This document shows positions 1,053 through 42,491 of a DNA stretch of 44,532 bases, piece by piece. How positions within the stretch are numbered: the first letter of the stretch is position 1; each line of letters opens with the position of its first letter. Source of the stretch: Escherichia phage vB_EcoP-CC1. Under the pieces are notes generated by a model. That model saw only the letters and a program-made list of their open reading frames with translations. It was not told the origin of the DNA and did not search any database. The position numbers and the translations under genes are program-made. Where the stretch lies: sequence record OX457022. One strand, given 5' to 3'.

Positions 1053-1447
1053 AATCTTCAGAGGTGGCAGCTTATAAGAAAGAGCTTATGGAGAAGCAAG
1101 GTTGGAAGTGTCCTCTGTGCGGAGGCAGCCTTAAGGCAGTAAGTCCTATCAACCGTGTACTTGACCATGATCATGAGACAGGTTTCTGTCGTGCTGTTGT
1201 GTGTCGTGGCTGCAACGGTGCAGAAGGAAAGATTAAGGGTGTTATATCTGGCTACGGAAAGGCAGGTAATAACCGCTACTTCCAACTACAATGGTTAGAA
1301 CGCCTGTATAACTACTGGAAGTTGCATAGTACACCTCAGACAGATAAGTTATATCATAATCATAAAACGGAGGCAGAGAAACGAGAGGCTAAAAATCGTA
1401 AGGCTCGCCTGGCTTATGCAAGAAAGAAGGAGGTTAAGAGTGGCTAA
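1037..1447 (+). CDS. endonuclease VII-like Holliday-junction resolvase
   Basis: 136 aa; Cys/His motifs CPLCGG and LDHDHETGFCRAVVCRGCNG typical of the endo VII/HNH-like family; overlaps exonuclease stop. Confidence 0.7.
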   Translation: MASKLKSSEVAAYKKELMEKQGWKCPLCGGSLKAVSPINRVLDHDHETGFCRAVVCRGCNGAEGKIKGVISGYGKAGNNRYFQLQWLERLYNYWKLHSTPQTDKLYHNHKTEAEKREAKNRKARLAYARKKEVKSG

Positions 1448-2447
1448 ACTTCGTAGCCTTTATAAAGACTCCGAGGTGCTTGATGCAATCGAGCAAGCTA
1501 CCGACGAGAAAGGTAATGTTAACTATAATGAGATGGCGAAGGTTCTATCTAGCCACCCTGTGGGTAAGAAGATCACCCGTCAACTTGCTCGCTACTGGCA
1601 TGGTCAATTCAAGAAGACCAAGAAGAATGGTGATTATTACCAGACTCTTCTGCAAGAGGATAAGCGTATCAAAGAAGAGCGTAAGCTCAGGACTCCTGAC
1701 CGCTACGAGGATTTGGCTATTGTACCATTGCCTGACTCGCCTCATCGAAGTGTACTGGTAATCCCTGATACTCATGCACCTTATGAGCACCCAGATACCT
1801 TAGAGTTCCTTGCAGCAGTGGCAGCACGTTATCGACCAGACACAGTGGTACATCTTGGAGATGAGGCAGATAAACATGCCCTGTCATTCCATGATTCGGA
1901 TCCAAATTTGGACAGTGCTGGCATGGAGTTAGAGAAGGCTCGTGTCTTCATGCACAAGTTGCACAAGATGTTCCCTGTGATGCGCCTGTGTCACTCTAAC
2001 CACGGATCTATGCATTTCCGTAAAGCGAGCGCCAAGGGTATTCCTGTGCAATACCTGCGTACCTATCGTGAAGTCTTCTTCCCGAATGGAGGTGGCGACC
2101 AGTGGGACTGGCAGCATACTCATGTGCTTGAGTTGCCGAATGGCGAACAGGTGGCATTCAAGCACCAACCTGCTGGTTCTGTCCTAGCAGATGCAGCGCA
2201 TGAGCGCATGAACCTAGTGTGTGGACATTTGCATGGTAAGATGTCGGTAGAGTATGCACGTAATACACATGAACAGTATTGGGCTGTGCAGGGTGGCTGT
2301 CTGATTGATGAGTCCTCTCGTGCATTTGCCTATGGTCGTGAGTCTAAATACAAGCCAGCATTAGGTTGTGTGGTTATTCTGGAAGGTGTGCCTCATATTG
2401 TCCCGATGCAGACCAATAGTGACAATCGCTGGATTGGTAAGATTTAG
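1416..2447 (+). CDS. calcineurin-like metallophosphoesterase
   Basis: Ordered signature motifs IPDTHAPY (DxH), HLGDEADKH (GDxxD), CHSNHGSMH (GNH-like), CGHLHGK; alternative GTG start at 1440 has AAGGAGG 7 nt upstream. Confidence 0.8.
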   Translation: MQERRRLRVAKLRSLYKDSEVLDAIEQATDEKGNVNYNEMAKVLSSHPVGKKITRQLARYWHGQFKKTKKNGDYYQTLLQEDKRIKEERKLRTPDRYEDLAIVPLPDSPHRSVLVIPDTHAPYEHPDTLEFLAAVAARYRPDTVVHLGDEADKHALSFHDSDPNLDSAGMELEKARVFMHKLHKMFPVMRLCHSNHGSMHFRKASAKGIPVQYLRTYREVFFPNGGGDQWDWQHTHVLELPNGEQVAFKHQPAGSVLADAAHERMNLVCGHLHGKMSVEYARNTHEQYWAVQGGCLIDESSRAFAYGRESKYKPALGCVVILEGVPHIVPMQTNSDNRWIGKI

Positions 2448-2463
2448 TTGACACTATAGAACA
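2442..2463 (+). promoter_or_regulatory. phage RNAP promoter, SP6-type variant (ATTTAGTTGACACTATAGAAC), +1 G at 2459
   Basis: Matches core GACACTATAG of the promoter family; -12 to -10 is GTT rather than the class I CTG/CCG. Confidence 0.6.
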
Positions 2464-2515
2464 AAGGGCAGGTAATGTCTTGCCCTTGATTGTATAGTGA
2501 ATGGAGGAATTAATT

Positions 2516-7413: not shown

Positions 7414-7435
7414 ATTTACTGGACACTATAGAAGG
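7414..7435 (+). promoter_or_regulatory. phage RNAP promoter class I (ATTTACTGGACACTATAGAAGG), +1 G at 7431; capsid promoter
   Basis: Exact family consensus 55 nt upstream of capsid ATG. Confidence 0.85.
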
Positions 7436-8685: not shown

Positions 8686-8694
8686 TAACCTATG

Positions 8695-8730
8695 CCCTAT
8701 CTACCTTGCGTAGGTAGGGTTCTTTTGTTT
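8695..8730 (+). terminator. T-phi-like transcription terminator after capsid gene
   Basis: 10-bp stem CCCTATCTAC/GTAGGTAGGG (one G-U pair), loop CTTGC, then TTCTTTTGTTT. Confidence 0.7.
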
Positions 8731-12611: not shown

Positions 12612-15554
12612 ATGGCAATTGAACGTCAAGCTGTACAAGGACTAGAAAGAGTACAGTCAAGGGGCGCGCCAACACCTATGTCTTTCACACCACGACAAGT
12701 GAGTATCTCAGGGGGCGCGGATGCCTCCGGTAGTAGATTTTTGGAAGACTTAGTAAACGCTGCAAGTAGTGTGGCTGATGTCACTACTGCTATCCTTAAT
12801 CAGCAAGTAGAAGACGATAAGGTTCGCCAGATGGATAGGGCTTTATCTGGCATGATGCCTTCTGAGGATGCTACGGTAGGTGGTGCTCGTGCGCATATGC
12901 TGGTTAGTTTACAAAATGATGTAATCGCACAGACAACTGCGCTACAAGTAGAAGCACAGCGATTTCAAGGTAGTGACGAGGATTGGGAAAACTATGTAGT
13001 TCAATCTCGTAATGAGGTACAAAATAGGTTATGGCAAAGTTATCCAGAGCTTCGTGGTGACAAAGATTCTATGAGACTTGTCACTAACGCGTTCATGGAG
13101 CAGCAACCTAGAATTACTGCAACTAGAGCAGAGGCTAAACTTCGTCAAGAAGAAGAAGCACGAATGCAATCTATGCAGTCTCGTATTATCATGGCTACAC
13201 GGGACGTAGCGCCAGATGCCACTGGTGCAGCACTCATCCAGTTACAAAAAGAAGCACTGGCGATGGGTCTTAGTAAACCTGAGTTTGATCAGATGGTTGC
13301 TAAGATTGCATCTGACAGAGCGGCAGTAGGAGATGATAGTCTTATTCAGGGAACCAAAGCACTGGTGGATGATAAGGGTGTCTCTTTGTATGACCGTGTT
13401 GGTGCTTTGCAAACTGGAGAGATTCAAGCTAACAGAGCTTGGGCTGCGCAGAATCAGGTTGCCCTCTTTGAGAAGAAGGATGCAGCTATAAAGGCATTCG
13501 ATGCAGGGCAACTTACTCGTGAAGAGTTACTTCAGGTGATGCAGAATCACAATGAATTGACTGGTGGTACTGCTTGGTCTGATAGCGAGATCAAGGCTAT
13601 CTTCGATAGGCAAGCTAAGGCTAATGCAGAGAAAGCAAAGCTCGAAGATCTTATTGCACGAGGTGAATCTGGGTCGCCTTTAGGTTTACAGGATATTAGT
13701 AAGGATGACAGAAAATCCTATGCTGAAGCCTTAGTTAGTACCTACACTAAGTTGGCAGAAGATGAAATTGCCCGTACTGGTGCAACGGGAGAACAGGCTG
13801 AAGCTATTCGCGGTAGGTATGAGCAGATGCGTTATCTTAAATTAGGGCAACAACTTATTGAAGACCCAATCATTAAGGAAAGATATTCGTCGCTTATGCA
13901 ATTATCCTCTGCCAACCTTAAAGATATGAATGTTGAGCCTGAAGCATTACAGACCATCATGCGAGCGCGGGACTCTATTCCAGAGGATGCACGTCGTGCT
14001 GTCATGGGAGACAAAGAGTATGCCTTTGTAGAGAACTACGACCTAGCAACTCGCATGGGGTATAACGCAGGTCAAGCTATTGAGTTTGCACAGAATGCCT
14101 CTCGTGGAGAGAAGCTACAAGGTTCTGTACTTAAAGAACTGAATGATGATGTAGATGGAGTTGTAAGTGATGTGGCAGGAGGTAGTTGGCTTACTCGTGG
14201 CGATAATATGAGTGAGATGGGTCGTGACATTATGATGGAGGAGGCAAGTACAATTGCGAGAGCAATGAAGGTTGCAGGTCATAATAATGACACGATTAAA
14301 CGTCATCTTAAATCCTATTTGACGAGCCAGTATACACAGTTATCAGAGGGCTTCTTCACCCAAGGTGTTCTGGTGAAAGGTGATGTACGAACATTAGGTG
14401 ACACTATAGGAGTAAACCAGAATGACCTTCCTATGGCGCTACGTCAATATATGGATAACAACAAGCAAGCACTTCTTGATGCATCAGGTGGCTTAGAAGA
14501 GGGTGATTTGTATTTTGATGTAGATGCGCAGCGGGGACTCTTTACCATACGTGCAGGGTCTGGTCGTGTACCTGTTACGCAGGCAATGCCTTTGTCTGAA
14601 ATCAAAGGGCAGTCCTTGCTTAAGCAAAGATATGATGCAGAGGTTAAAGCCCGTGATGAGGGGCGTAAGAATTTTGAAGCACAGCAAATGAGGATGTGGG
14701 GCGCAGGTGGCTACCAAGCACAACCACCTGCAAAGACTACAGCCAAAACTGTAGGCTCCCGTGGGATTGCTGACTTCTTAATGTCACCTGCCTTTGCATC
14801 AGGCGAGAATCTACCAGCAAACTTTGAGTTTGGATATAAGAGGAATAATATGGACTTCTACAATTATGTAGCCAAGATGGAGAATAATGCCAATGTGGGC
14901 TTTGACCGAGTAGCTGGTGTTTATACACCATACAAAGATGCACATGGTCAATCTGTCGGGTACGGTCACTTCCTTACTACTGAAGAGAAGAAGAACGGAT
15001 ACATTATGATTGGTACAGAGAAAGTGCCATTCACTCCGGGACAATCTCAATTAACACCAGAACGAGCCATGCGCCTTCTACAGCAAGACTTGAAGAGTCA
15101 TGTGCCAAACACTTCAGGGTGGGCTGTTCCATTCGAAGAGATGCACCCAGGTGTTCAGCGTGGCCTTATGGACTTGTCCTATAATTTAGGCAAAGGAGGT
15201 ATCCAGAATGCACCTAAAGCCTATGTTGCGTTTAAGGCTGGCAAGTTTACTGATGGATTTATTGAGATGTTATCTACTGCATCTACTGAAGGTAAGCGTA
15301 GTACTGGGTTGTTGGTTCGTAGAGCAGAAGCATACAACCTTGCACAGAGTGGAGGTGCTATTCCTAAGATTAGTGAAGTAGAGACACGAGCCGATGGGTC
15401 TATGTATGTTAAGTTTGCAGGACAGATGTCAGAGGCTTTCGTAAATAAATCAATCTACAATCAGATTGGTAAGGATGGATGGCTGCAAGTGTACCCTCCA
15501 AAACAAGGTGTACTTGCACCTAACACCAAGATTGGTAGAATCAAACTAAGCTAG
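12612..15554 (+). CDS. internal virion protein with lysozyme-like (T4-lysozyme-type) domain
   Basis: 980 aa; residues ~760-900 contain YKDAHGQSVGYGHFLT, closely resembling T4 lysozyme YKDTEGYYTIGIGHLLT. Confidence 0.75.
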   Translation: MAIERQAVQGLERVQSRGAPTPMSFTPRQVSISGGADASGSRFLEDLVNAASSVADVTTAILNQQVEDDKVRQMDRALSGMMPSEDATVGGARAHMLVSLQNDVIAQTTALQVEAQRFQGSDEDWENYVVQSRNEVQNRLWQSYPELRGDKDSMRLVTNAFMEQQPRITATRAEAKLRQEEEARMQSMQSRIIMATRDVAPDATGAALIQLQKEALAMGLSKPEFDQMVAKIASDRAAVGDDSLIQGTKALVDDKGVSLYDRVGALQTGEIQANRAWAAQNQVALFEKKDAAIKAFDAGQLTREELLQVMQNHNELTGGTAWSDSEIKAIFDRQAKANAEKAKLEDLIARGESGSPLGLQDISKDDRKSYAEALVSTYTKLAEDEIARTGATGEQAEAIRGRYEQMRYLKLGQQLIEDPIIKERYSSLMQLSSANLKDMNVEPEALQTIMRARDSIPEDARRAVMGDKEYAFVENYDLATRMGYNAGQAIEFAQNASRGEKLQGSVLKELNDDVDGVVSDVAGGSWLTRGDNMSEMGRDIMMEEASTIARAMKVAGHNNDTIKRHLKSYLTSQYTQLSEGFFTQGVLVKGDVRTLGDTIGVNQNDLPMALRQYMDNNKQALLDASGGLEEGDLYFDVDAQRGLFTIRAGSGRVPVTQAMPLSEIKGQSLLKQRYDAEVKARDEGRKNFEAQQMRMWGAGGYQAQPPAKTTAKTVGSRGIADFLMSPAFASGENLPANFEFGYKRNNMDFYNYVAKMENNANVGFDRVAGVYTPYKDAHGQSVGYGHFLTTEEKKNGYIMIGTEKVPFTPGQSQLTPERAMRLLQQDLKSHVPNTSGWAVPFEEMHPGVQRGLMDLSYNLGKGGIQNAPKAYVAFKAGKFTDGFIEMLSTASTEGKRSTGLLVRRAEAYNLAQSGGAIPKISEVETRADGSMYVKFAGQMSEAFVNKSIYNQIGKDGWLQVYPPKQGVLAPNTKIGRIKLS
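14392..14413 (+). promoter_or_regulatory. promoter-like sequence inside coding region (CATTAGGTGACACTATAGGAG)
   Basis: Matches SP6-type consensus better than this phage's class I promoters; lies inside the 980-aa gene (codons GDTIGV); function unproven. Confidence 0.3.
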
Positions 15555-15570
15555 TGGTATACTCAAGGTT

Positions 15571-15588
15571 TGTCTCACATGTGAGACA
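15571..15588. repeat. 18-bp perfect palindrome TGTCTCACATGTGAGACA
   Basis: 16 nt after stop of 980-aa gene; member of palindrome family; flanked by AAGG...CCTT. Confidence 0.9.
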
Positions 15589-15621: not shown

Positions 15622-18600
15622 ATGGTTGATAGTATTAACCAAAACTGGGTGGCGGTGACTCAACGCAAGTTACCGCCTACCTTCTCTCAAATTGCTGAAG
15701 CTGAGCGTAAGGCTGAAGCCCAGAGAGCTAATGATAAAGTGTTTCAAACAGCATTAGAAAGTGAGTGGGCTTTATATGGCGGACAACGTGCCTATGAACG
15801 CCACACTACAGAGTTTGCTGAACAAGAAGGCTATGAAGTGCCTGAGTCAACTAAGGATGAGTTATCCAAGTTGTATGGGTATGAAATAGCGCAAGACATA
15901 GTTAAGAATGTAAAGTCTCCAGAAGAGTTGCAATTCCGTATGTCTAATGCTGCTGCTGATAAAGACAGAGCAGACATCTTAGCACGTAATGGTTTCACGG
16001 GTTTCAGCGCGCAGATTGCTGCTGGCATCCTTGACCCTGTAGGTTGGGCTGCATCCTTAGTGGCTGCGCCTGTAGCGGGTGCTGTCAAAGTAGGTAGGCT
16101 AGGTAGGATTATCAAGACGGCTGCCTTATCAGGTGCTGAAAATGCTGCATTAGAAGCTATACTTGCACAAGGTGATTACCAGCGAGGGGTTGATGATGTA
16201 CTGGCTGCTGCCGGATTTGGTATGATTATGGGCGGCACTATTGGTGCTGCAACCAGAGAGCGCATAGCCAGTGCTGGTTCTCGTACAGCGGCAGAACGAG
16301 CAGATGCTGTAGTTGATGACTTGGACACTGTAGTAAAAGGTGCTGATGAATTTGACTCGTCTGCGGCTCGTGCTGTACGTGAAGCTATGGAATATGACGC
16401 GTATATGGCAGCGCGTAATTACGAACCACTTCGTGCAAGAGAGGTAGATGCAGACATGGCGATTCTGTCTCACACAGACAATTTGAAAGCCAATGCATCG
16501 GTAAGGATGAGTGCTAGTGAGAAGGGGCAACTGAAGAAGCAGATACGTCAGCTTGAAGCAGAAGCAGCAACACTTAAAGGGAAGAAGATAGACACTGTAG
16601 CGGAAGCTGCGGCTGCTAAGGGTGCACCTAAATCTGCTGCTGACAGATTAGATTTGGATGTTCAGAAGAAAGCATTAGCACGTAGATTTGATGAACCACT
16701 GGCAGACTTACAAGCGCGTCTTGATGAGTTGAATGCTAAATTGTCTCGTGTAAACAATGTAGGCAAAGCCAAGGAAGAGCTTAAGAGATTCTCATCGCTA
16801 TCTCGTGAAGAGCAAATAAAGGAGTTAGGTCTAGACGCACCAGTGCGCAAGGTAGAGATGACCCGTGCCGTGCGAGATGCAATTGACGCAATCCGTGCCG
16901 AGCGTAAGAAGACGCCTACCGAAATACATGCTGAACAAGTCGCAGAAGATGCAATTAAGCAAAGGGCAGACGACTCTGTTGGTGCTAAACGTGTTGAAGG
17001 TTCAGAGATTGCAGGTGAACAGTTTGACCTATCTAAAAACATGGAAGAACTTATGGATGACTTGGCACGAGAAGCATACCAGTCAGAGGTGCGGCCTATT
17101 AATCTTAAGGGTTTAGGTTCAGTGTCTTCTGTGATTCTTAACTCAGAGAATCCTGTGTTCCGAGGCCTAGGTCTTCGTCTGCTTGAAAATGCTCAAGGTG
17201 GTGCATATCAAGGTAAGACAGCTTCTATCTTATCAGATGTGTATGGCAACCTTATTCGTCATGCAGAACGTAACAGATACAATGATGGCTTCTCTCAGTT
17301 CATCAAAGATAATAACCTACGTGCGGTAGACTATCTTAACCCTGCAACGACAAGGGATTTCAATAATCAGATTTATACAGCAATTGTTCGTGGCATACCA
17401 GAAGATACACCTCGTGGTGTTAAACTGGCAGCCGAAGGTATTGCAGATAAGCTCAAGAAAGCACTGGAGATTCGTAAGCAAGCAGGTGAGCGAGGCTTCG
17501 AGGATGTGCAATCTGCTAAAGATTATATTCCCGTTATCTACGATGGTATCAAGATCACAGAGGCAGTTAACAAGTTAGGTAGTAGTGAAGCTGTCATTCA
17601 CTTGCTATCTAAAGGGTATCAGACAGGCAAGTACAAACTTGGCAAGAAAGCTGCTGATGCACTAGCCAAAGTTCAGTATATTCGCGCATCTGACTCCACC
17701 CTCTCTAGTCGTGTTGCATTCGATAGGGTGGTATCCCAGCAGCAGCAGGCTCAATTGATTGAGGATCTGAAGAAAGCAGGAGTACCAGACCATATCATTG
17801 ATAATTTCATTGAAGGTACGGAATTAGCAGAAATGGCTGAATCGGTATCCAATCGAGCTAAAGCTAGTATGGGTATTAATACGCAAGCCGAATATGGCGG
17901 TTTGAAGGTGCAGGATTTGCTTAATACAAACGTAGGCGAGCTAGCTGAGAACTACGGCAAAGAGGCAGCAGGCGGTGCTGCATTAGCTGCCATGGGTTTC
18001 CCCACTCGCCAGTCTGTGCTGAATGCGATAGATGCCGCAGAACGCGCAGGTCGTAATATGGCGGGGTCAAATGCTAAGGCAATCAAACAGCTTAGGGCTG
18101 AGGCAGAAATGCTCAGAGATGCCGTTAAGCTCATTTACGGCAACACTATTGACGCCGACCCTAACTCTGGAATTGTCAGGGGCACTCGACGTGTCCGTGA
18201 GATTACAGGCTTGTTACGATTGGGTCAAATGGGCTTCGCTCAGATACCAGAACTGGCACGTGCAATCTCTAAGATGGGATTAGGTACTGTGCTGAAGTCC
18301 ATACCTGCCACGAAGTTCTTACGTTCAAGGGCGGCTCGTAAGGGAGGAACAGCTCAAGGTGAATTACTTGAACCTGAACTGCGAGAAATGGAGGAACTCT
18401 TAGGCTATATCGGGGAAGATAACTGGCTTACAGGGTGGAACGTCCGTCATGATGAGTTCGGAGAAACTGCTGATAACCTAGGTAAGCTGTCTGCTATTAT
18501 TGATAACGGATTAGCTATGGGTAGTAGAATCAACACAATACTCTCTGGATTTAAAGCAGTACAAGGTGGTTCAGAGAAAATTGTAGCTCGCTCTATCAAT

Positions 18601-19425
18601 AAGAGATTAAAGCAGCACTTGATGGGTGAGAGACAATTACCTAAAGCAGACCTTGAAGAAGTAGGCCTAAGTGAAGATGTCATGAAAAGACTTAAGCGTC
18701 ACTTTGATGACAACCCTCTGTACGCTGAGTACAATGGAGAAAAAGTTCGTATGCTGAACTTTGATGCTATGGAGCCAGACCTGAGAGAGACAGTGGGTGT
18801 TGCTGTGCGAAGAATGTCAGGCCGTCTTATTCAACGTAACTTCATTGGCGATGAAGGTATCTGGATGAATAAATGGTGGGGTAAGGCATTAACGCAGTTT
18901 AAGTCATTCTCTATTGTCTCTATTGAGAAACAGCTAATCCATGATTTACGAGGTGATAAGATTCAGGCTGCACAGATACTTGCATGGTCTACTTTACTAG
19001 GTTATGCATCTTATGCACTACAGATGCAGATGCAAGCGATTGGTAGGGAGGATAGAGACAAGTTCTTGAGGGATAAGTTTGACACACAGAACATCGCTAT
19101 GGGTGTCTTTAATAAACTTCCACAAGTTGCAGGCTTTGGTTTAGCTGGTGATGCTTTGGCAACCTTTGGCCTAATGCCAGACTCCATGATGCAAGCACCG
19201 GGACGCATGGGTTTCCGTCAGCAAGGCTTTGGGGATTTGGTAGCAGGTGCTGGTGTAATAAGTGATACAGTTAATTTGTCACAAGCACTGGTTAAGTATG
19301 CCAGTGGAGACGATGATGTCTCTACGAGGCAGTTGGTAGACAAGGTTCGTCGCCTTGTTCCTTTGGCAAATACTATTGGTGTGGGTCAGATGACTAAAGC
19401 CAGTGTAGATTTATTGGAGGATTGA
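15622..19425 (+). CDS. internal virion protein (gp16-like, large ejection protein)
   Basis: 1267 aa, third internal-core gene, RBS AGGAGG; size close to T7 gp16. Confidence 0.75.
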   Translation: MVDSINQNWVAVTQRKLPPTFSQIAEAERKAEAQRANDKVFQTALESEWALYGGQRAYERHTTEFAEQEGYEVPESTKDELSKLYGYEIAQDIVKNVKSPEELQFRMSNAAADKDRADILARNGFTGFSAQIAAGILDPVGWAASLVAAPVAGAVKVGRLGRIIKTAALSGAENAALEAILAQGDYQRGVDDVLAAAGFGMIMGGTIGAATRERIASAGSRTAAERADAVVDDLDTVVKGADEFDSSAARAVREAMEYDAYMAARNYEPLRAREVDADMAILSHTDNLKANASVRMSASEKGQLKKQIRQLEAEAATLKGKKIDTVAEAAAAKGAPKSAADRLDLDVQKKALARRFDEPLADLQARLDELNAKLSRVNNVGKAKEELKRFSSLSREEQIKELGLDAPVRKVEMTRAVRDAIDAIRAERKKTPTEIHAEQVAEDAIKQRADDSVGAKRVEGSEIAGEQFDLSKNMEELMDDLAREAYQSEVRPINLKGLGSVSSVILNSENPVFRGLGLRLLENAQGGAYQGKTASILSDVYGNLIRHAERNRYNDGFSQFIKDNNLRAVDYLNPATTRDFNNQIYTAIVRGIPEDTPRGVKLAAEGIADKLKKALEIRKQAGERGFEDVQSAKDYIPVIYDGIKITEAVNKLGSSEAVIHLLSKGYQTGKYKLGKKAADALAKVQYIRASDSTLSSRVAFDRVVSQQQQAQLIEDLKKAGVPDHIIDNFIEGTELAEMAESVSNRAKASMGINTQAEYGGLKVQDLLNTNVGELAENYGKEAAGGAALAAMGFPTRQSVLNAIDAAERAGRNMAGSNAKAIKQLRAEAEMLRDAVKLIYGNTIDADPNSGIVRGTRRVREITGLLRLGQMGFAQIPELARAISKMGLGTVLKSIPATKFLRSRAARKGGTAQGELLEPELREMEELLGYIGEDNWLTGWNVRHDEFGETADNLGKLSAIIDNGLAMGSRINTILSGFKAVQGGSEKIVARSINKRLKQHLMGERQLPKADLEEVGLSEDVMKRLKRHFDDNPLYAEYNGEKVRMLNFDAMEPDLRETVGVAVRRMSGRLIQRNFIGDEGIWMNKWWGKALTQFKSFSIVSIEKQLIHDLRGDKIQAAQILAWSTLLGYASYALQMQMQAIGREDRDKFLRDKFDTQNIAMGVFNKLPQVAGFGLAGDALATFGLMPDSMMQAPGRMGFRQQGFGDLVAGAGVISDTVNLSQALVKYASGDDDVSTRQLVDKVRRLVPLANTIGVGQMTKASVDLLED

Positions 19426-22508: not shown

Positions 22509-22702
22509 TGATAAACTCCGAACTGGTAGATAATGGTGTGAAGCTGGCGCCACCTGCATTAGTCTCAGGTGGGTACTTCCTCGGTATCAGTTGGGACAAT
22601 TTGGTACTGATAGCAACATTCATTTATACAGTGTTGCAGATTGGCGATTGGTTCTATACTAAATATACAATATGGAGGAATAAGCATGAGCGTGCACAAT
22701 AA
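22508..22702 (+). CDS. class II holin (T7 gp17.5-like)
   Basis: 64 aa; segment FIYTVLQIGDWFY resembles T7 holin YTVVQIGAKV; hydrophobic core plus basic C-terminus; RBS AAGGAGG. Confidence 0.7.
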   Translation: MINSELVDNGVKLAPPALVSGGYFLGISWDNLVLIATFIYTVLQIGDWFYTKYTIWRNKHERAQ

Positions 22703-22985
22703 ACATGCAGCCACAGAGGATGAAGTAGGCATCCTTCATGGCGCTATTACGAAGATGTTTAATAAGAAAGCACAGGCTATACTGGACACTATAGAAGAAG
22801 ACCCTGATTCTGCTATGCACTTAGTGTCAGGTAAGGATATTGGAGCCATGTGTAAGTGGGTTTTAGATAATGGCATTACTGCAACCCCTGCTGCACAGCA
22901 GGAAGAATCTAAGTTGTCTAAGCGTCTCAAGGCTATCCGAGAGGCGTCCAGTGGTAAGATCATTCAGTTTACTAAGGAGGATTAA
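22686..22985 (+). CDS. terminase small subunit (gp18-like)
   Basis: 99 aa from ATG 22686 (GGAGGA upstream); immediately precedes terminase large subunit. Confidence 0.55.
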   Translation: MSVHNKHAATEDEVGILHGAITKMFNKKAQAILDTIEEDPDSAMHLVSGKDIGAMCKWVLDNGITATPAAQQEESKLSKRLKAIREASSGKIIQFTKED

Positions 22986-27333: not shown

Positions 27334-28857
27334 ATGGCTAAACTAACGAGAGTCACTGACTGGCTTGTTAAGGTAAAGTCCAGACTCACTGGTGCAGTAG
27401 AGCGACTGCTTGAAGATAAGTTAAATGACACGGTTAGTGTTAAGGACTTCGGTGCTAAGGGTGACGGTGTGACAGACGACACACAAGCATTTGCTGCCGC
27501 CTCAGCCGCATCGCCTCAAGGTGTTTATGTGCCTGACGGAACATATTTATTACCAGAAGATATTAATGGCAGGTTCTATGGTTCTGGTAAACGCATCAAG
27601 GCTGTAGGTGATGGTGGTATTCCTTTTACCAATGTAGCTCAGTCACATAGTAACCTAATATTAGGATATGATGCTGCAAAGGATTACACGGACGAAGGGA
27701 AAGGCAACCAATTAGTATTACTTGGCCCAAGCTCCGGTCGTAACCTTACCACTGGTACTAACTCCATTGTGGTAGGTGTTGGTGGCCTATCGGGTGATAC
27801 ATTAGAAGATGCACTAACAGATAAATCACCTTTCACTGGTACAGAGATTATTAGCATTGGTATCAATGCTCTTAAGAAAACTACCACTGGTAACAACATG
27901 ATTGGTATTGGTCGTGATGCCCTGAACGAGTGTAAGGATGGAAGATTCAACGTAGCTATAGGTATGTCTGCTTTGCAGCAGCTACACTCTGGTGAGGCTA
28001 ACGTAGCAATAGGGCGTTCAGCCGGTATGCGTACTGGCATCTTCACTAACGAAGATGGTGTACGATTAGGCTATACAAAATGTAGCGGTAATACCTTAAT
28101 AGGTAACGCGGCTGGTCGTGAATTGAAGTCAGGTAATCATAACACCGCCGTAGGCAATGGTGCTATGCGAGGTGTCAGTTCTGATATTAATCCATATACT
28201 GGCACTCTAGAGGGTAATTTTAATACAGCTATTGGTGTTGATACCTTAAACTCCTTAGCATCTGGTGAGTTGAACACCATGATTGGCGCAAGGGCTGGGC
28301 GTAAATTACCTAGTGGCTCTGGTAACATCTTCATCGGTGCGGATGCAGGTGCAGGTATTAACATTGAAAAGTCTAACACTCTCATTATTAACAACCACAC
28401 TGGCTTACCTTTCGTAGAAGGTATTATGGATGGTGCTCAGAGTGAGAATAACTACTTACGTGTTGATGGAAGTGTAGCACCTCAGATTGATAACACAAGA
28501 ACTTGTGGTCAGTCTAGCCGTAGATGGCAGACTGTCTTTTCTACCAATGGTGTTATCCAGACATCGGATGGACGATGCAAGGATGTCTACGATATTGCCA
28601 AGACGGAGTACATGGCTGGTCTAGAGTTATCTTCTAGTATGATTAAGTTCAAATGGACAGATACTAAAGAAGATAAGTATCACTTCGGTTGTCTGGCACA
28701 AGAGGTCATGCTGATTATGGAGAAACATGGGTTAAACCCTCTGGATTATTCCCTCGTTACCTATGATGCTGAAGCAGATATGTATGGTGTTAACTATGCA
28801 GAATTGTCTTGCTTCTGTATCGCAGCAATGTCCAATCATGTACTAGGCAGTGCGTAA
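27334..28857 (+). CDS. tailspike with pectate-lyase-like beta-helix and C-terminal S74-like chaperone domain
   Basis: 507 aa from ATG 27334 (AGGAGA RBS); motif VKDFGAKGDGVTDDTQAF typical of pectate-lyase-fold depolymerases; C-terminal SDGRCKDVYDI chaperone-like motif. Confidence 0.8.
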   Translation: MAKLTRVTDWLVKVKSRLTGAVERLLEDKLNDTVSVKDFGAKGDGVTDDTQAFAAASAASPQGVYVPDGTYLLPEDINGRFYGSGKRIKAVGDGGIPFTNVAQSHSNLILGYDAAKDYTDEGKGNQLVLLGPSSGRNLTTGTNSIVVGVGGLSGDTLEDALTDKSPFTGTEIISIGINALKKTTTGNNMIGIGRDALNECKDGRFNVAIGMSALQQLHSGEANVAIGRSAGMRTGIFTNEDGVRLGYTKCSGNTLIGNAAGRELKSGNHNTAVGNGAMRGVSSDINPYTGTLEGNFNTAIGVDTLNSLASGELNTMIGARAGRKLPSGSGNIFIGADAGAGINIEKSNTLIINNHTGLPFVEGIMDGAQSENNYLRVDGSVAPQIDNTRTCGQSSRRWQTVFSTNGVIQTSDGRCKDVYDIAKTEYMAGLELSSSMIKFKWTDTKEDKYHFGCLAQEVMLIMEKHGLNPLDYSLVTYDAEADMYGVNYAELSCFCIAAMSNHVLGSA

Positions 28858-28870
28858 GCACTGCTTTTCT
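28847..28870 (+). terminator. hairpin terminator overlapping tailspike stop (GCAGTGC-GUAA-GCACTGC then TTTTCT)
   Basis: 7-bp perfect stem, GNRA-type loop containing the stop codon, U-rich tail. Confidence 0.55.
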
Positions 28871-28937
28871 CGCAACTTCCCTTGAAGCAATCTAGCGATA
28901 CCTTCAAGGGAATAGCTCAAGAAAGCAAGGAGGTTTG

Positions 28938-29087
28938 ATGCCGTTGATCAAATCAGTTAAGCAAAGTGCTGTACACCAGAACACAGAAGAACTTATTCAA
29001 TCAGGACGTGACCCTAAGCAGGCCTATGCCATTGCCAAGGATGTACAGCGTCGTGCCATGAAGAAACCTTCTGCATCTTCTGCGTAA
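28938..29087 (+). CDS. hypothetical small basic protein (49 aa)
   Basis: Below ORF-track cutoff; strong RBS AAGGAGG 6 nt upstream of ATG. Confidence 0.4.
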   Translation: MPLIKSVKQSAVHQNTEELIQSGRDPKQAYAIAKDVQRRAMKKPSASSA

Positions 29088-29221
29088 TCAGGTTAATATC
29101 TTAGTGTACACAAGGGCAAACCTATGATAGCTCACAGCACACCTCTGAGTGCCGCTCTGGATTCTATGAATTGTTCCCTGACTATCTAGGTTTGCTCTTA
29201 GTATATTACAAAGGAGGTCAC

Positions 29222-29377
29222 ATGATTTGGATCCACACGTATGGTGTAGGGTCATTCAAGAAGAATGTACTCAGGAAGATCCATGAGTCCGAGGAATCAG
29301 CCTTAGCCAGCCAGAAGGTACTTGGTGGTACTATCCAGTGCTACATGAAGAAGCCACAAGGTTTTGACTTAGTGTAA
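29222..29377 (+). CDS. hypothetical small protein (51 aa)
   Basis: AAAGGAGG RBS 5 nt upstream of ATG 29222 (ORF track begins 29171). Confidence 0.4.
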   Translation: MIWIHTYGVGSFKKNVLRKIHESEESALASQKVLGGTIQCYMKKPQGFDLV

Positions 29378-29430
29378 CCAAAGGTGGTCACAAAGTAACC
29401 AAAGTCAAAATTTTGATGTAGGCGTGTGTC

Positions 29431-29475
29431 AGCCCTCTCGCCCTCGCCCTCGCCGGGTTGTCCCCATAGGGTGGC
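29431..29475. other. GC-rich block in terminal region ((CCCTCG)n then CCCCATAGGG)
   Basis: Non-coding; CCCCATAGGG resembles the CCCCCATAGGGGG element recalled near the T7 left end; candidate terminal-repeat/packaging region. Confidence 0.4.
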
Positions 29476-30092
29476 CTGAGGGAATCCGTCTTCGACGGGC
29501 AGGGCTGATGTACTCCTTGTACTAGCTTAGTAGTACACAAGGGCTGGCCTTTTGTTTTGCCATGTACTAGCAAGGTGGAACGCTGGAGAGCGCCTAGGAC
29601 GGCCTAGGGATGGGCTTAGTGGTGGACAAGGTGATTGCCTTAGTGAAGCCTCTTAGTGCATTCCTGAGGCCATTCAGGGCGTTTATGAGATATTGACAGG
29701 GTGTGCGTGGGTGGGCTATCTGTTCGTTTCGTTCACTCCGCTTGCGCTACGTTCACTCGCTCACGTGTACCTTAGGTTGTTCCTTGATGGATAGCTTAGG
29801 TTAGCCTTAGTGGACTACCTTAGTTATAACCTTAGTGCTTATCTTAGTAATAGCTTAGTAATGTACCTTAGTAAGTCTTAGTGTCTTCTCTTAGTGATTG
29901 CACATGCAAGCATGTAAGATGCCATTAGGTCGCGGTCGGTAGACCGCTAAAGAAAGAGAATAGTAATAAGATGCAGTAGGAGGAACACCAGAAACCTAGC
30001 CAACCTAACCTATCCTAGCTCTGTATCTATTGCTTTTCCTTAGTCTAACATGTGAGACAACCTAGATTTATCTTAGTGATGATAGCTTAGTG

Positions 30093-30121
30093 TTGACAAG
30101 GCCATCTCAATGTAATACTAT
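30093..30121 (+). promoter_or_regulatory. candidate host sigma70 early promoter (TTGACA-17-TACTAT)
   Basis: Perfect -35, 5/6 -10, 17-nt spacer; upstream of early small ORFs. Confidence 0.45.
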
Positions 30122-30193
30122 TCATCACGTAGGCAGCACTGAGGTGCTTAGTAGCCAGCTAGTAAGGCATACGAAGAGACTAGTGCCTGCATT

Positions 30194-30209
30194 GCTCTTT
30201 AACAATTTG
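30194..30209 (+). promoter_or_regulatory. RNase-III-site-like element GCTCTTTAACAATTTG (copy 1)
   Basis: 16-mer repeated exactly at 30805; resembles recalled T7 R0.3 site GCTCTTTAACAATCTGG. Confidence 0.4.
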
Positions 30210-30263
30210 CTTAGTGTAACCTATGTATGCCGTGGTTAATTACTTATTGAATGAGGGTTAACT

Positions 30264-30359
30264 ATGAATTACGAAGAAATGTATGAAGACTACTTCAATT
30301 CACTTGATGAAGGAGAAGAAGCATTGTCCTTTGCTGAGTTTATGGAGGCTTTATCATGA
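30264..30359 (+). CDS. hypothetical early protein (31 aa, acidic)
   Basis: Short ORF with GAGGG upstream; first ORF after terminal region. Confidence 0.3.
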   Translation: MNYEEMYEDYFNSLDEGEEALSFAEFMEALS

Positions 30360-30532
30360 TTCTGAATAACCGTGAACTATCCATTCTCTTCACCTTGTTG
30401 TGCTATATGATTCGTAACAACGAATTACTTACAGACGATGAACTGGCACTATATCACCGTTTCCTTAACGAAGGTTGGGTCGATACAGTTAACCAGAAAC
30501 GTGACTTGATGAAGGAGTTAAGCAATGTTTAA
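30356..30532 (+). CDS. hypothetical early protein (58 aa)
   Basis: ATGA overlap with previous ORF; stop overlaps next ORF start. Confidence 0.35.
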   Translation: MILNNRELSILFTLLCYMIRNNELLTDDELALYHRFLNEGWVDTVNQKRDLMKELSNV

Positions 30533-30734
30533 ACATGAGATTTACACTGATTGCAGTAAATCGGCTAAAGCTATCTGCGATTTGTACAAGGCAGAATGCC
30601 AGACGTACAACCTCAACGATGGTACTGAGATGTTTTATCTTCAGTTTGAAAGCAAGTTATCTCACAAACGAGTGATTAACAGCCTGAATCAACACTCCTT
30701 GGAGTGGGAAGAAGTAAATAGCAATAAAGTTTAA
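30525..30734 (+). CDS. hypothetical early protein (69 aa)
   Basis: GAAGGAG RBS 8 nt upstream. Confidence 0.45.
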   Translation: MFKHEIYTDCSKSAKAICDLYKAECQTYNLNDGTEMFYLQFESKLSHKRVINSLNQHSLEWEEVNSNKV

Positions 30735-30743
30735 ATTAACTAT

Positions 30744-30772
30744 TGACAGCCACGGCATACAAGGTTACATTA
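30744..30772 (+). promoter_or_regulatory. candidate host sigma70 promoter (TTGACA-17-TACATT) upstream of ocr
   Basis: Perfect -35, 4/6 -10. Confidence 0.4.
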
Positions 30773-30804
30773 AGCATCAAGACGGCGACGTCTTTAAACA
30801 TCCC

Positions 30805-30820
30805 GCTCTTTAACAATTTG
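30805..30820 (+). promoter_or_regulatory. RNase-III-site-like element GCTCTTTAACAATTTG (copy 2)
   Basis: Exact repeat of 30194-30209, 94 nt upstream of ocr ATG, same relative position as R0.3 in T7. Confidence 0.45.
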
Positions 30821-30913
30821 GATGGTAGCTTCTTAGTCTGGATAGGTTAAACCTAGGGGATTCTCTTGAGTCTCCTATAATGTAACCTAACTAACTAAAT
30901 GAGGATTAATAAC

Positions 30914-31273
30914 ATGACTATGTCTAATATGACTTACTCTCAGGTTTACAACACCGCTCATGCTGCATTAGTTGAACGTATCTGGAATGATGCTATTGAT
31001 TGTATCGATAACGCACATGATGCAATCCATGAGGTAGCGGACAGTGCTGTACCAATCTATTATGCTGACATCTTCTCAGTGATGGCGAGTGAAGGTATTG
31101 ATCACTTCTTCGAAGACTCCGGCCTGATGCCAGATACTAAGGATGTAACGGTCGTACTACAAGCCCGTATTTATGAACAACTCACCATTGATTTATGGGA
31201 ACGTGTTCAAGATATGATTGTTGCGTACACCAATTACGCTGAGGATTCAGAAGAAGAAGAAGAGGAAGAATAA
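30914..31273 (+). CDS. ocr: Ocr (T7 gene 0.3-like DNA-mimic anti-restriction protein)
   Basis: MTMSNMTY...[42 protein letters not shown]...[14 protein letters not shown] plus poly-Glu tail matches recalled T7 Ocr nearly residue for residue; GAGGA RBS. Confidence 0.85.
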
Positions 31274-31275: not shown

Positions 31276-31389
31276 ATGGAAAAGCAATATAACTTTATCT
31301 TTTCAGACGGTGTGACCCTGAAGTGTTCCCTGCGTTTCGCACAGATTCGCGAGGAAGTGCTAGGAACTACATACAAACTATTTAGCTGA
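31276..31389 (+). CDS. hypothetical small protein (37 aa)
   Basis: Short ORF right after ocr; its 3' end contains promoter-like sequence at 31380. Confidence 0.25.
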   Translation: MEKQYNFIFSDGVTLKCSLRFAQIREEVLGTTYKLFS

Positions 31390-31401
31390 CACTATAAGAG
31401 A
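31380..31401 (+). promoter_or_regulatory. variant phage promoter-like sequence (ATTTAGCTGACACTATAAGAG)
   Basis: 16/17 match to SP6-type -17 to -1 but A at +1; upstream of RNAP gene. Confidence 0.4.
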
Positions 31402-31462
31402 GGGTTTAACAGGGCGCTCTTGCGAGAGTGCCCGATTAAATCAACTTAACGAGATATTAAAT

Positions 31463-32690: not shown

Positions 32691-35318
32691 ATGCAAGATC
32701 TACACGCTATTCAGCTTCAGCTTGAGGAAGAAATGTTTAACGGCGGTATTCGTCGCTTTGAAGCAGACCAACAACGCCAGATTGCATCAGGTAATGAATC
32801 CGATACGGCATGGAATCGTCGCCTGTTGTCGGAGCTTATCGCACCTATGGCGGAAGGTATTCAGGCTTATAAGGAAGCCTACGAAGGAAAGAAAGGACGC
32901 GCACCGCGTGCACTGGCCTTCATTAACTGCGTAGAGAACGAAGTGGCAGCATATATCACGATGAAGATCGTAATGGATATGCTTAACACAGATGTAACCT
33001 TGCAAGCCATAGCAATGAATGTAGCTGATCGCATCGAAGATCAAGTACGCTTCAGCAAGCTGGAAGGCCACGCCGCCAAATACTTTGAAAAAGTTAAGAA
33101 GTCACTCAAGGCAAGTAAGACTAAATCATATCGCCATGCGCACAACGTAGCGGTAGTGGCTGAGAAGTCAGTAGCTGACCGTGACACTGATTTCTCCCGC
33201 TGGGAGGCGTGGCCTAAAGATACCTTACTGCAAATCGGTATGACCTTGCTAGAAATACTGGAGAATAGCGTATTCTTCAATGGTCAACCTGTCTTCCTCC
33301 GCACCTTGCGCACTAATGGTGGCAAGCATGGTGTTTACTACTTACAGACCAGTGAGCACGTAGGGGAGTGGGTTACAGCATTTAAAGAACATGTAGCGCA
33401 ACTTAGTCCGGCCTATGCACCTTGCGTCATTCCTCCGCGCCCTTGGGTGTCCCCTTTTAATGGTGGGTTTCATACTGAGAAGGTGGCAAGTCGCATCCGT
33501 TTGGTAAAAGGCAACCGTGAGCACGTCCGTAAGCTGACCAAAAAGCAAATGCCAGCAGTTTATAAGGCTGTTAATGCTTTACAGGCCACTAAGTGGCAAG
33601 TTAACAAAGAAGTTTTGCAGGTAGTAGAAGACGTTATCCGTCTCGACCTTGGTTATGGTGTACCTTCCTTTAAACCACTCATCGACCGCGAGAACAAGCC
33701 GGCTAACCCAGTGCCGTTAGAATTTCAACACTTGCGAGGCCGCGAACTGAAGGAAATGTTAACGCCGGAACAATGGCAAGCCTTCATCAACTGGAAAGGT
33801 GAATGCACCAAGCTGTATACCGCTGAGACTAAGCGCGGAAGTAAGTCGGCGGCAACCGTTCGCATGGTAGGACAAGCGCGCAAATACAGCCAGTTTGATG
33901 CGATTTATTTCGTGTATGCACTGGATAGCCGCTCACGCGTTTATGCGCAATCTAGCACACTCTCACCGCAATCAAACGACCTAGGCAAGGCGTTACTGCG
34001 TTTTACCGAAGGGCAGCCGCTAAATAGCTCTGAGGCGCTTAAATGGTTTTTGGTGAACGGGGCGAATAACTGGGGTTGGGATAAGAAGACTTTCGACGTG
34101 CGCACCGCTAACGTACTGGACGGCGAGTTTCAAGATATGTGCCGCGACATTGCAGCGGATCCTCTGACCTTTACTCAATGGGTAAATGCCGATTCACCTT
34201 ATGGATTCCTTGCATGGTGCTTTGAGTATGCTCGTTATTTGGATGCACTGGATGAAGGAACACAAGATCAGTTTGTGACGCATTTACCTGTTCATCAAGA
34301 TGGTAGCTGTTCTGGCATCCAGCACTACAGTGCTATGCTACGCGACGAAGTGGGTGCGAAGGCGGTAAACCTTAAACCATCCGACTCGCCTCAAGATATT
34401 TATGGAGCGGTTGCGCAGGTTGTTATCCAGAAGAACTACGCCTACATGAATGCAGATGATACAGAAACTTTCACATCTGGAAGCGTAACACTTACAGGTG
34501 CAGAACTGCGCAGCATGGCTAACGCGTGGGATATGATTGGGATCACTCGCGGCTTAACCAAAAAGCCAGTAATGACCTTGCCATACGGCTCCACCCGCTT
34601 AACCTGCCGTGAATCGGTGATTGATTATATCGTTGATTTGGAAGAAAAAGAGGCGCAGAGAGCTGTTGCCGAAGGGCGGACGGCTAATCCTGTGCACCCT
34701 TTTGATAATGACCGTAAAGACTATCTGACACCTGGTGCAGCTTACAACTATATGACCGCTTTAATTTGGCCTTCTATCTCTGAGGTTGTTAAAGCGCCTA
34801 TAGTGGCGATGAAAATGATTCGCCAGCTTGCACGATTCGCAGCTAAAAGAAACGAAGGGTTAGAGTACACCTTACCCACTGGTTTCATCTTGCAGCAAAA
34901 GATAATGGCTACCGACATGCTACGCGTATCCACTTGCTTGATGGGTGAAATCAAGATGAGTCTACAGATTGAGACTGATGTAGTGGATGAAACGGCAATG
35001 ATGGGCGCTGCCGCTCCTAACTTTGTTCACGGTCATGATGCGAGTCACCTTATTCTGACTGTATGTGACCTAGTTGACAAAGGTATTACATCAATTGCAG
35101 TTATTCATGACTCTTTCGGAACTCATGCAGGCCGTACATCAGATCTTCGTGATAGCTTAAGGGCAGAAATGGTTAAGATGTATCAAGGGCGTAACGCCTT
35201 GCAGCAATTGCTGGATGAGCATGAAGAACGTTGGTTGGTGGACACTGGCATTCAAGTGCCGGAACAAGGGGAGTTTAACCTTGAAGAGATATTAGTTTCT
35301 GACTATTGTTTTGCATAA
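32691..35318 (+). CDS. single-subunit DNA-directed RNA polymerase (SP6-type)
   Basis: 875 aa; N-terminus [32 protein letters not shown] and C-terminus ending DYCFA agree with recalled SP6 RNAP; AGGAG RBS. Confidence 0.95.
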
Positions 35319-37958: not shown

Positions 37959-37996
37959 GGCTCTTATTAAGTACATTAAATAACTGGAGATTGATT

Positions 37997-38719
37997 ATGT
38001 ATAAATTAGTATTGAATGCAGGTGATTATGTTCGTAACATCAATGAAGCCTCACGTCGTTATCGTTGCCGTGGTGTGGTTAGCTATGTAAGTGAGAACAT
38101 GTACCATGTGGAGTACAGCAACGGCATTAAACAATCTTATCATAAGAAGTTAGCACATAACTACCTTGAGAAGATTGGCGAGACAAGCAATCAATGCAAG
38201 TGTGTACATGATGAGGTTTGCGATAAGTGCAAACGTCAGGCAATTAAAGCCTTTACCTTTGCGCAACGTTATGGTTCTATGTATGGTGCTGGTCACAAGA
38301 CCGTTGCAGAAGCAGCTTGGAAGACATTACAGTTTGAGCATTCAAATGGACGACGCACCACAATTAAGAAAGAGCGCCGCAATGTCATCACTGGTAAGAC
38401 TCAAAGTGAGATGATTAAGCAATGTGGCACTGCATTAGGTGTTACACAGTTCAATACACGTGCTCTAGGTAAATCTACAGGACAAGCTATGTTTAAGATT
38501 GGTGAAGCCATGATGCACCCAAATGTACCTGTGCGAATCATGGATGTTGACCATGCAATCACAGAACATGGTACAACACGGCGTGTAGTTAATAATCATT
38601 TTGCCGACACTATAGAAGATATTATCCGTAAGCAAGGATTGAAAGGTCTTCACATCTTAAATGGTGAAGAGTTGCTGTACCTTCCTATTGTTACCGAAGA
38701 AACCTACGTGAATATCTAA
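37997..38719 (+). CDS. hypothetical protein (240 aa) with Cys cluster
   Basis: GGAGA RBS 6 nt upstream of ATG 37997; CKCVHDEVCDKC cluster; between primase and DNA polymerase. Confidence 0.55.
   Translation: MYKLVLNAGDYVRNINEASRRYRCRGVVSYVSENMYHVEYSNGIKQSYHKKLAHNYLEKIGETSNQCKCVHDEVCDKCKRQAIKAFTFAQRYGSMYGAGHKTVAEAAWKTLQFEHSNGRRTTIKKERRNVITGKTQSEMIKQCGTALGVTQFNTRALGKSTGQAMFKIGEAMMHPNVPVRIMDVDHAITEHGTTRRVVNNHFADTIEDIIRKQGLKGLHILNGEELLYLPIVTEETYVNI
38588..38609 (+). promoter_or_regulatory. weak promoter-like sequence inside coding region (ATTTTGCCGACACTATAGAAG)
   Basis: Core CACTATAGAAG intact but 3 mismatches at -13, -12, -10; probably non-functional. Confidence 0.2.
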
Positions 38720-42113: not shown

Positions 42114-42491
42114 ATGTCTATGGTAACTACTCTGGTATTCGTAGCTCAATACTTTCGTGGCCTGGCTAATAAGTTTAAACAGAAAGCAATCTTTGCAATT
42201 CAAGAACGTATTAATAAAATTGAAGAAGAACAAGTAGATGTAGAGGAACATCGTAGTTCTCAGATGATTGACCTGCATAATCGTCTGTACAAAGATCGTG
42301 ATGAGATGCGTCACCGTCATGCGAAGGAAGTTGAAGACATGCTTAACCGCCATGCGGAAGAACAAGCTAAGTTGGAAACCACTTTCCATGAGGATAAACG
42401 TAGCATCGCTCTAGCACATCAAGCTGCATCGGATAGCCTGAAGAAAGAGATTGTTATGCTGGAGATTGAGTTAGACAATCTTACCAAATAA
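42114..42491 (+). CDS. hypothetical coiled-coil protein (125 aa)
   Basis: RBS TAGGAGA; charged heptad-like sequence through most of the length. Confidence 0.55.
   Translation: MSMVTTLVFVAQYFRGLANKFKQKAIFAIQERINKIEEEQVDVEEHRSSQMIDLHNRLYKDRDEMRHRHAKEVEDMLNRHAEEQAKLETTFHEDKRSIALAHQAASDSLKKEIVMLEIELDNLTK

Follow-up and report, generated by a model that had tools for sequence, protein, structure and literature searches.

The stretch of DNA analysed here (the window) is the 44,532-nucleotide sequence record OX457022 from Escherichia phage vB_EcoP-CC1, a circularly permuted SP6/K1-5-like podovirus genome of 44.5 kb (Vectrevirus, K1-5-type) with the standard gene order of early genes, RNA polymerase (RNAP), DNA metabolism, head, tail, internal virion proteins, terminase and tailspike. 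Three promoter-like sites on its + strand are considered. Site A, at 2442 (ATTTAGTTGACACTATAG), overlaps the end of a phosphoesterase open reading frame (ORF; gene 22 in K1-5) upstream of a nucleotide-kinase gene; site B, at 31380 (ATTTAGCTGACACTATAA), belongs to the early region, where it follows a small ORF (gene 4 in K1-5) and precedes the RNAP gene by about 1.3 kb; and site C, at 14392 (CATTAGGTGACACTATAGG), lies in frame within the 980-amino-acid internal virion protein ORF 12612..15554. An earlier interpretation of the letters without database searches (the sequence-only reading) had grouped the three by a G at -12 and a T at -10, and had proposed that they are promoters of lower strength or other timing, or else remnants of an ancestral specificity. 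The sites lie exactly where it placed them, with the +1 positions it implied (2459, 31397 and 14409), and the two shared bases do agree with the SP6 consensus, ATTTAGGTGACACTATAG.

Analysis reveals that the three sites are real and far beyond chance, yet belong to more than one class. On the sequence evidence, sites A and B are genuine, conserved non-consensus promoters of the resident K1-5-type polymerase, and their deviations from the majority promoter form are bases of overlapping stop codons, that is, compromises between promoter and coding sequence. Site C is most likely an inherited late promoter embedded in a gene, and is probably attenuated in this phage, as judged by comparison with its counterparts. 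The complete picture, in which the phage's own promoters A and B are bent by stop codons and site C is an SP6-type relic held in place by its codons, is considered probable, with appreciable room for doubt.

The window contains a single RNAP gene (32691..35318), encoding a T7-family enzyme (E = 1e-112 to T7 RNAP structures). The core GACACTATA occurs exactly 13 times, always on the + strand, where essentially none is expected, and the pattern ATTTAGNTGACACTATA, which covers all three sites, gives 11 matches with at most two mismatches, compared with 0.02 expected from shuffled sequences. The majority (class I) form in the window is ATTTACTGGACACTATAGAAG, while the consensus within the SP6 genome is ATTTAGGTGACACTATAG / ATTTAGGTGACACTATAGAAG. 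All three sites carry the invariant core at -9 to -1 on the rightward strand. The upstream AT-rich element (ATTTA or AATTA, -17 to -13) is ATTTA at sites A and B and CATTA, with agreement at three of five positions, at site C; since the embedded site at 22777 has CTATA in this place and site C has CATTA, gene-embedded sites relax the element. The predicted initial transcripts are GAACA for site A, AGAG with A at +1 for site B, and GGAG for site C, the last also found at 24882 and 35411. For SP6 RNAP, output depends strongly on positions +1 to +3, with GAA as the best start (PMC7429497), and in experiments expression from the K1E major-capsid promoter has been obtained with K1E RNAP (PMC6412113). 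No phage promoters are annotated in the GenBank records of SP6, K1-5, K1E and LL11.

Position -11 separates the promoters of the two phage groups. In a comparison of all distinct GACACTATA sites, drawn from nine genomes or contigs of the K1-5 type and six of the SP6 type, -11 is G in 29/29 distinct SP6-type promoter sequences, whereas it is T or C in 26 of the 27 distinct K1-5-type sequences, the exception being one LL11 promoter. The flanking positions -12 and -10 are free to vary in both groups: SP6-type triplets at -12 to -10 include GGT, GGG, GGA, GGC, AGT, AGG, CGT, CGA and TGT, and K1-5-type triplets include CTG, CCG, CCA, CTA, GCC, GCA, GTC, GTT, GCT and TCT. The grouping by -12 G and -10 T made in the sequence-only reading is thus uninformative, and it also passed over a further site with G at -12, at 38598 (ATTTTGCCG...), together with the other gene-embedded promoter-like sites at 22777 and 37711.

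The change at -11 is accompanied by a change in the polymerase. The codon of Ser747 in the window RNAP (34929..34931, + strand) aligns with T7 N748 in the specificity loop, a position occupied by Ser in every K1-5-type RNAP, by Arg in the enzymes of the SP6, TGCACTATA, GCTACTATA, ACCACTATA and Kp7 types, and by Lys in that of the CGGACTATA type; in the RNAP alignment it is the sole radical fixed difference in the specificity loop. With Arg in the other lineages, or Lys in the case of CGGACTATA, the derived state is Ser. The window RNAP is 97-98% identical to those of K1-5 and K1E but only 85% identical to SP6 RNAP, from which it differs by Ser in place of Arg at this position. Raskin et al. 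reportedly traced the T7/T3 specificity switch to N748/D749 reading -11/-10. The present case resembles that switch in that the -11 base co-varies with one residue of the specificity loop, at the aligned position, and differs from it in that the alternatives are Arg and Ser in the SP6/K1-5 group but Asn and Asp in T7/T3. From this correlation and the T7/T3 precedent we infer that the N748-aligned residue reads -11. In a covariation study of 2025, SP6 and K1E are reported to depart from T7-derived recognition rules (PMC11880802). In the favoured account, the K1-5-type RNAP of the window uses promoters with the invariant GACACTATA core at -9 to -1 and, compared with SP6, prefers a pyrimidine over G at -11, a preference accompanying the Arg-to-Ser loop change. 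Sites A (T) and B (C) carry such a pyrimidine and site C (G) does not. An SP6-type promoter proper, with -11 G, the GACACTATA core and an Arg-loop RNAP in the same genome, is found at none of the three: site C has the sequence but a resident RNAP with Ser747, and A and B have no -11 G.

Site A comprises the phage-RNAP promoter ATTTAGTTGACACTATA/G at 2442..2459 (+ strand), with its predicted +1 at 2459. The TAG stop of the upstream ORF 1416..2447 lies at 2445..2447 (+ strand) and coincides with promoter positions -14 to -12, so that -12, which is G as the last base of TAG, cannot be the consensus C. The triplet at -12 to -10 is GTT; the SP6 counterpart has AGT, with -11 G, and the SP6 stop codon at this place is TAA, which yields -12 A. 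A stem-loop follows at 2464..2487 (+ strand), at +6 to +29 of the predicted transcript (-14.6 kcal/mol, z = -3.2). The 17-mer is identical at the same gene junction in LL11, K1-5, K1E and P433.1, while this position holds ATTTAAGTG in SP6 and CTTTAAGTG in K1-ULIP33; even Kp7 has a promoter here, of another core but with the same GAACA start and a hairpin. Across relatives the GAACA start is always kept and the stem-loop usually is. A stem-loop in the same arrangement follows the promoters at 7414, 27234, 42027 and 42490 in the window, where most intergenic promoters have such a hairpin, and site A is the last promoter of the DNA-metabolism block. As a separate observation, the AATTA element of the 42490 promoter overlaps the TAA stop (42489-42491) of the upstream ORF 42114..42491, a further deviation due to a stop codon (compare SP6 13005).

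Site B comprises the promoter ATTTAGCTGACACTATA/A at 31380..31397 (+ strand), with +1 at the A of 31397. Here the TGA stop of the 37-amino-acid ORF 31276..31389, the gene 4 equivalent, occupies 31387..31389 (+ strand), which is promoter positions -10 to -8; as -10 is the first base of this stop, it must be T. The overlap is the same in LL11 (coding sequence 1770..1883, site at 1874) and in SP6 (coding sequence 1997..2113, site at 2104). The triplet at -12 to -10 is GCT, and TGT in the SP6 counterpart, again with -11 G. A strong stem-loop lies downstream at 31404..31441 (+ strand), with a GC core at 31412-31433 (-19.6 kcal/mol, z = -4.7), and a similar hairpin follows the counterpart in SP6 and K1-ULIP33. 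Counterparts with A at +1 lie upstream of the RNAP gene in K1-5, K1E, LL11, SP6, K1-ULIP33 and Kp7/PmP19, and likewise in the lineages of TGCACTATA, GCTACTATA and CGGACTATA specificity, so that the feature is kept across at least five promoter-core lineages. This conservation suggests that the site B-type promoter is a special feed to the polymerase gene, possibly a self-limiting one: an A-initiating promoter in this place would let the phage RNAP transcribe the equivalents of K1-5 genes 5 and 6 and its own gene. It was also noticed that all lineages, among them L022 (at 2127), L045 (8736), L046 (2132) and L049 (2693), have an A as the first transcribed base of the promoter upstream of the RNAP gene (TATA/AGA or AGAG), and that A at +1 is unique to this position among all promoters in the compared genomes. 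In T7, the promoter phi2.5 sits before the gene for the single-stranded DNA-binding protein; site B, upstream of the RNAP gene, is not its positional counterpart. The likeness between the two is the A at +1, phi2.5 being a low-activity, adenosine-initiating promoter (PMC6412113).

Taken together, the places of sites A and B are occupied by a promoter of the phage's own core in every relative examined, even where that core is TGCACTATA, GCTACTATA, CGGACTATA or GGCGAGTATA, and in K1-5 and K1E both sites are the same as here in sequence and position. The two sites share with the SP6 promoters (ATTTAGGTGACACTATAGAAG, of Salmonella phage SP6 and other Zindervirus-like phages) the -9 to -1 GACACTATA core, the ATTTA element and the rightward orientation. 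They are nevertheless of the non-SP6 type, since they follow the window's own promoters in carrying T or C at -11, and this pyrimidine, compared with the -11 G of their SP6 counterparts, indicates that A and B have co-evolved with the polymerase. The relic interpretation offered in the sequence-only reading does not hold for these two sites, which are already K1-5-type; its other proposal, of lower strength or other timing, is plausible for them, and a reduced strength is likely, given the compromise with coding signals and the dependence of SP6 RNAP on positions +1 to +3. Their hairpins were considered as terminators and rejected, as no T-runs follow, and are probably processing or stabilising structures.

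A distinct promoter class defined by -12 G and -10 T, with its own timing or a second mode of recognition, would account for the bases common to all three sites and could draw on the hairpin architecture common to two of them. The same two positions, however, vary freely among the regular promoters of both polymerase types, the genome encodes only one RNAP, and the sites differ from one another at -11, at +1 (G, A and G), in initial transcribed sequence and in context. Moreover, at each site at least one of the shared bases belongs to a different coding signal, namely a TAG stop, a TGA stop and a Gly codon. Such a class is regarded as extremely improbable.

Site C is the only one of the three with the SP6-type -11 G, and it agrees with the SP6 consensus from -15 to +1. 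It consists of the SP6-type promoter core CATTAGGTGACACTATA/GG at 14392..14410 (+ strand) inside the internal virion protein gene (12612..15554, + strand; gene 35 in K1-5/SP6 numbering, gp35 type), which is an SP6-type allele with 73-74% nucleotide identity to SP6. In the reading frame the site spells ACA TTA GGT GAC ACT ATA GGA, encoding T L G D T I G, and the Gly codon GGT at 14397..14399 (+ strand) coincides with promoter positions -12 to -10. Every homologue examined, Kp7 and PmP19 among them, has this Gly, so that -11 G is fixed: a pyrimidine there would replace the invariant residue. The same codons occur in SP6 at 29393 (CGCTAGGTGACACTATAGG), which with 17428 and 2104 completes the SP6 counterparts of sites C, A and B, and SE29 has CTTTAGGTGACACTATAGG at this position, with one mismatch to the SP6 consensus. 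One paper puts the number of SP6 promoters at 12, a figure that agrees with the count of plausible sites only if the gene 35 and early-region sites are included; this is suggestive only.

The distribution of site C follows the gene 35 allele. Comparison with relatives places sites A and B at the same gene junctions throughout, and site C in the carriers of an SP6-type gene 35; among Vectreviruses these are the window, CrRp3, P433.1 and some metagenomic contigs. In K1-5 and K1E gene 35 is divergent, with about 30% amino-acid identity around the site and no promoter-like sequence, in which they differ from the window. Over the internal-virion-protein region, identity to the window is 94% in LL11 (Vectrevirus), 91% in Citrobacter phage CrRp3 and 74% in SP6, and the 4 kb compared with Escherichia phage vB_EcoP-CC2 (12000-16000) show 100% identity. 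Kp7 and PmP19, which use the unrelated core GGCGAGTATA, have none of the five site C codons and no promoter there. LL11 lacks the core as well (GGA GAT): its gene 35 (28273..31215) is 97-98% identical to that of the window save for a patch of about 300 codons at 78-81% around the site. Gradual decay or two independent point losses were considered for LL11 and rejected, since the divergent patch is a recombinant segment.

Synonymous constraint was evaluated as third-codon-position identity in five-codon windows of the gene 35 codon alignment, the window of interest being TTA GGT GAC xCT ATA. Ranked among phylogenetically related sequences, site C is first of 962 within the SP6-type clade (identity 1.0 versus a gene mean of 0.63) and first of 957 across all sequences, while in the K1-5-type clade it is unexceptional (0.867 versus a mean of 0.727, rank 205/958). 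In addition, the probability of GGT GAC ACT ATA given GDTI is 0.011 under the codon usage of the window. A further line of evidence comes from contig 3300045988_000861 (IMG/VR; L045/L056/L008), whose RNAP is 93% identical to that of SP6 but has Phe for Lys at the T7-R756 position, and whose promoters are ATTTGTGTTGCACTATAG, with -9/-8 switched from GA to TG, and AATTATGTAGCACTATAA at the site B position. Its promoter core is TGCACTATA or AGCACTATA, and its gp35 site has turned to AGCACTATA, reading GGT AGC ACT ATA, which fits the new core at -8 at the cost of an amino-acid change from Asp to Ser. The constraint confined to the SP6-type clade, the codon spelling and the behaviour of the lineages with other cores together argue that site C is a selected, gene-embedded promoter in SP6-type phages.

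These data bear directly on the alternative that site C is mere coding sequence in which the peptide LGDTIG happens to spell a promoter that has never acted as one in any phage. The peptide is indeed conserved, an exact match of 16 nucleotides is nothing unusual between sequences 74% identical, the next start codon is 1.2 kb away, and neither a hairpin nor a conserved internal start codon accompanies the site. Peptide conservation does not account, however, for the top rank of the synonymous window in SP6-type phages, for the rare ATA codon in 17/17 sequences compared, for the fact that Kp7-type phages keep just the Leu-Gly of the peptide and 0/5 codons, or for an Asp-to-Ser replacement that tracks a changed promoter core; a purely coding origin is accordingly judged very unlikely. 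A hidden protein isoform begun from an internal start after 14409 was also tried and rejected, as the out-of-frame ATG at 14422 opens an ORF of only 24 codons and SP6 has no ATG there.

For the window itself, the favoured interpretation is that site C is a copy of the late promoter that SP6-type phages carry within the codons for Leu-Gly-Asp-Thr-Ile. The preference of the polymerase would have shifted at -11, and site C could not have followed, its -12 and -11 being the first two bases of the invariant Gly codon; it would thus most likely be an attenuated or silent leftover. For 14392, unlike the other two sites, the retained -11 G and the comparative data support the idea of a relic of ancestral specificity. 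A wider proposal is advanced only tentatively and is thought less likely than not to hold in all its parts: that the gene 35 promoter is under selection in SP6-type phages across genera, that embedded sites frozen by their codons, such as 14392, record the ancestral Arg-loop/-11 G specificity and the sequence in which polymerase and promoters co-evolved, and that the lineage makes new embedded promoters elsewhere, the small-terminase site of K1-5-type phages being an example. The lagging of embedded sites does suggest a recurrent pattern, as the gene-10-equivalent embedded site of contig 3300045988_000861 still has the old GACACTATA core.

Several observations weigh against this account of site C. 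The searchable literature yielded no transcript 5'-end mapping for the SP6-like/K1-5 phage group, and initiation, relative strength and timing at all three sites are deduced from sequence; sequence, positional conservation, codon overlap, the correlation between -11 and the loop residue and the clade-specific synonymous constraint are direct observations. The rank statistics, resting as they do on related sequences, are no formal probabilities, and once LL11 is left out of the K1-5-type clade, only 44/958 windows are as conserved as site C. An intact site is kept by the window, CrRp3 and P433.1 as well as by two metagenomic contigs; membership of the K1-5 type is confirmed for three of the five and assumed for the other two, and one of the five is only 77-80% identical around the site. 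A bona fide K1-5-type promoter, LL11 13788 (AATTACGGG), has -11 G, from which a Ser-type polymerase may tolerate G at this position. In the K1-ULIP33 clade, which has SP6-type promoters, the gp35 site nevertheless has G at -6 (GACGCTATAGG), a base absent from its other promoters. Finally, contig 2706795706 (IMG/VR 2706795706_000001, L068 10580) uses ACCACTATA-type promoters, yet its gp35 site still reads GGA GAC ACT ATA GAT at 67% protein identity, a retention of the SP6-type core that is unexplained by a simple model in which each phage keeps promoters for its own polymerase.

Two other interpretations of site C draw on these observations. It is possible, though not the expectation, that site C still works as an internal late promoter, probably a weak one, with a Ser-type RNAP that tolerates -11 G and re-initiates transcription of the distal late genes past the capsid terminator: the remainder of gene 35, then gene 36 and the tail genes. 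The regular LL11 promoter with -11 G speaks for this, as do the GGA start common to 24882 and 35411, the persistence of the site in 5/6 compared K1-5-type lineages with that gp35 allele, the 77-80% identical segment among them, and the lack of any other exact core along the roughly 14 kb that separate the capsid terminator from 22777. Against it stand the rarity of -11 G (1/27 K1-5-type promoter sequences), the CA in place of AT at -17/-16, the lack of a 5' hairpin, the unexceptional synonymous conservation in the K1-5-type clade, and the gene 35 sequences of K1-5, K1E and the LL11 patch, all without the site. Alternatively, the conserved GACACTATAG in gene 35 might serve another role at the DNA level with no transcription start, either as a polymerase binding or pause site during genome entry or as a hot spot of recombination between phages. 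Such a role would accommodate the persistence of the core where the phage's own promoters differ, in K1-5-type phages and in the ACCACTATA-type contig 2706795706, and also the mosaic patches around the site in LL11 and L007; no positive evidence for it was found, however, the sequence is that of an SP6-type promoter, the constraint is strongest in the phages that use such promoters, and the gene 35 site changes along with the core in contig 3300045988_000861. This role is held to be very improbable.

The context of the leftover interpretation is late transcription beyond the capsid gene. A terminator-like hairpin with a T-run lies right after the major capsid gene at 8694..8720 (+ strand), with an 11-bp GC-containing stem, and is likely the equivalent of the T7 late terminator; from there to 22777, site C is the sole exact promoter core. 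At 22777..22794 (+ strand), inside the small-terminase ORF 22641..22985, lies an embedded class I promoter that is perfect from -13 to +6. Its peptide A I L D T I E E D is encoded in the window by GCT ATA CTG GAC ACT ATA GAA GAA GAC, and the promoter (GCx ATA CTG GAC ACT ATA GAA GAA GAC) is present in 5/5 K1-5-type genomes compared, K1-5 and K1E (ATTTACTGGACACTATAGAAG) sharing it with the window, while SP6-type phages encode an almost identical peptide with other codons and no promoter. This embedded promoter, of the correct specificity, may supply part of distal late transcription. Promoters embedded in genes are thus normal in this phage group and vary from lineage to lineage. Two more cores lie within coding sequence: one at 37711 (+ strand), towards the 3' end of ORF 35775..37763 (primase/helicase), in which GACACTATA encodes DTI, and the ATTTTGCCG variant at 38598 (+ strand), inside ORF 37991..38719 (gene 10 in K1-5).

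Promoters of this kind have precedents in T7, where relative promoter strength and timing have been measured. The T7 map of Dunn and Studier is said to include class II promoters and phi4c, which lies inside gene 4. The sites described here resemble these as non-consensus, presumably weaker promoters in the DNA-metabolism region and as promoters embedded in or overlapping coding sequence, and differ in belonging to another branch of the polymerase family with another promoter sequence. They are new examples of a familiar type of element, of modest evolutionary interest, and leave the general picture of how such phages work unchanged. Their practical bearing is on annotation and engineering. 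Where an overlapping stop codon or other codon can explain a deviation from a phage promoter consensus, the deviation is no ground for naming a separate promoter class, and late expression past the capsid terminator is suggested to rely on promoters hidden in genes that differ between sister genera. SP6-family polymerases and promoters are standard tools whose orthogonality is being engineered, and the natural series of close polymerases, with Arg or Ser at one loop residue and Lys or Phe at another and with full sets of cognate promoters, offers testable specificity rules in a branch said to break the T7 rules.

A minor feature lies just downstream of gene 35. The 67-nucleotide gap between ORFs 12612..15554 and 15622..19425, the sole intergenic gap of the tail/internal-protein block, contains a perfect 16-nucleotide palindrome, GTCTCACATGTGAGAC, at about 15572-15587, which possibly forms an RNA processing or stabilising hairpin.

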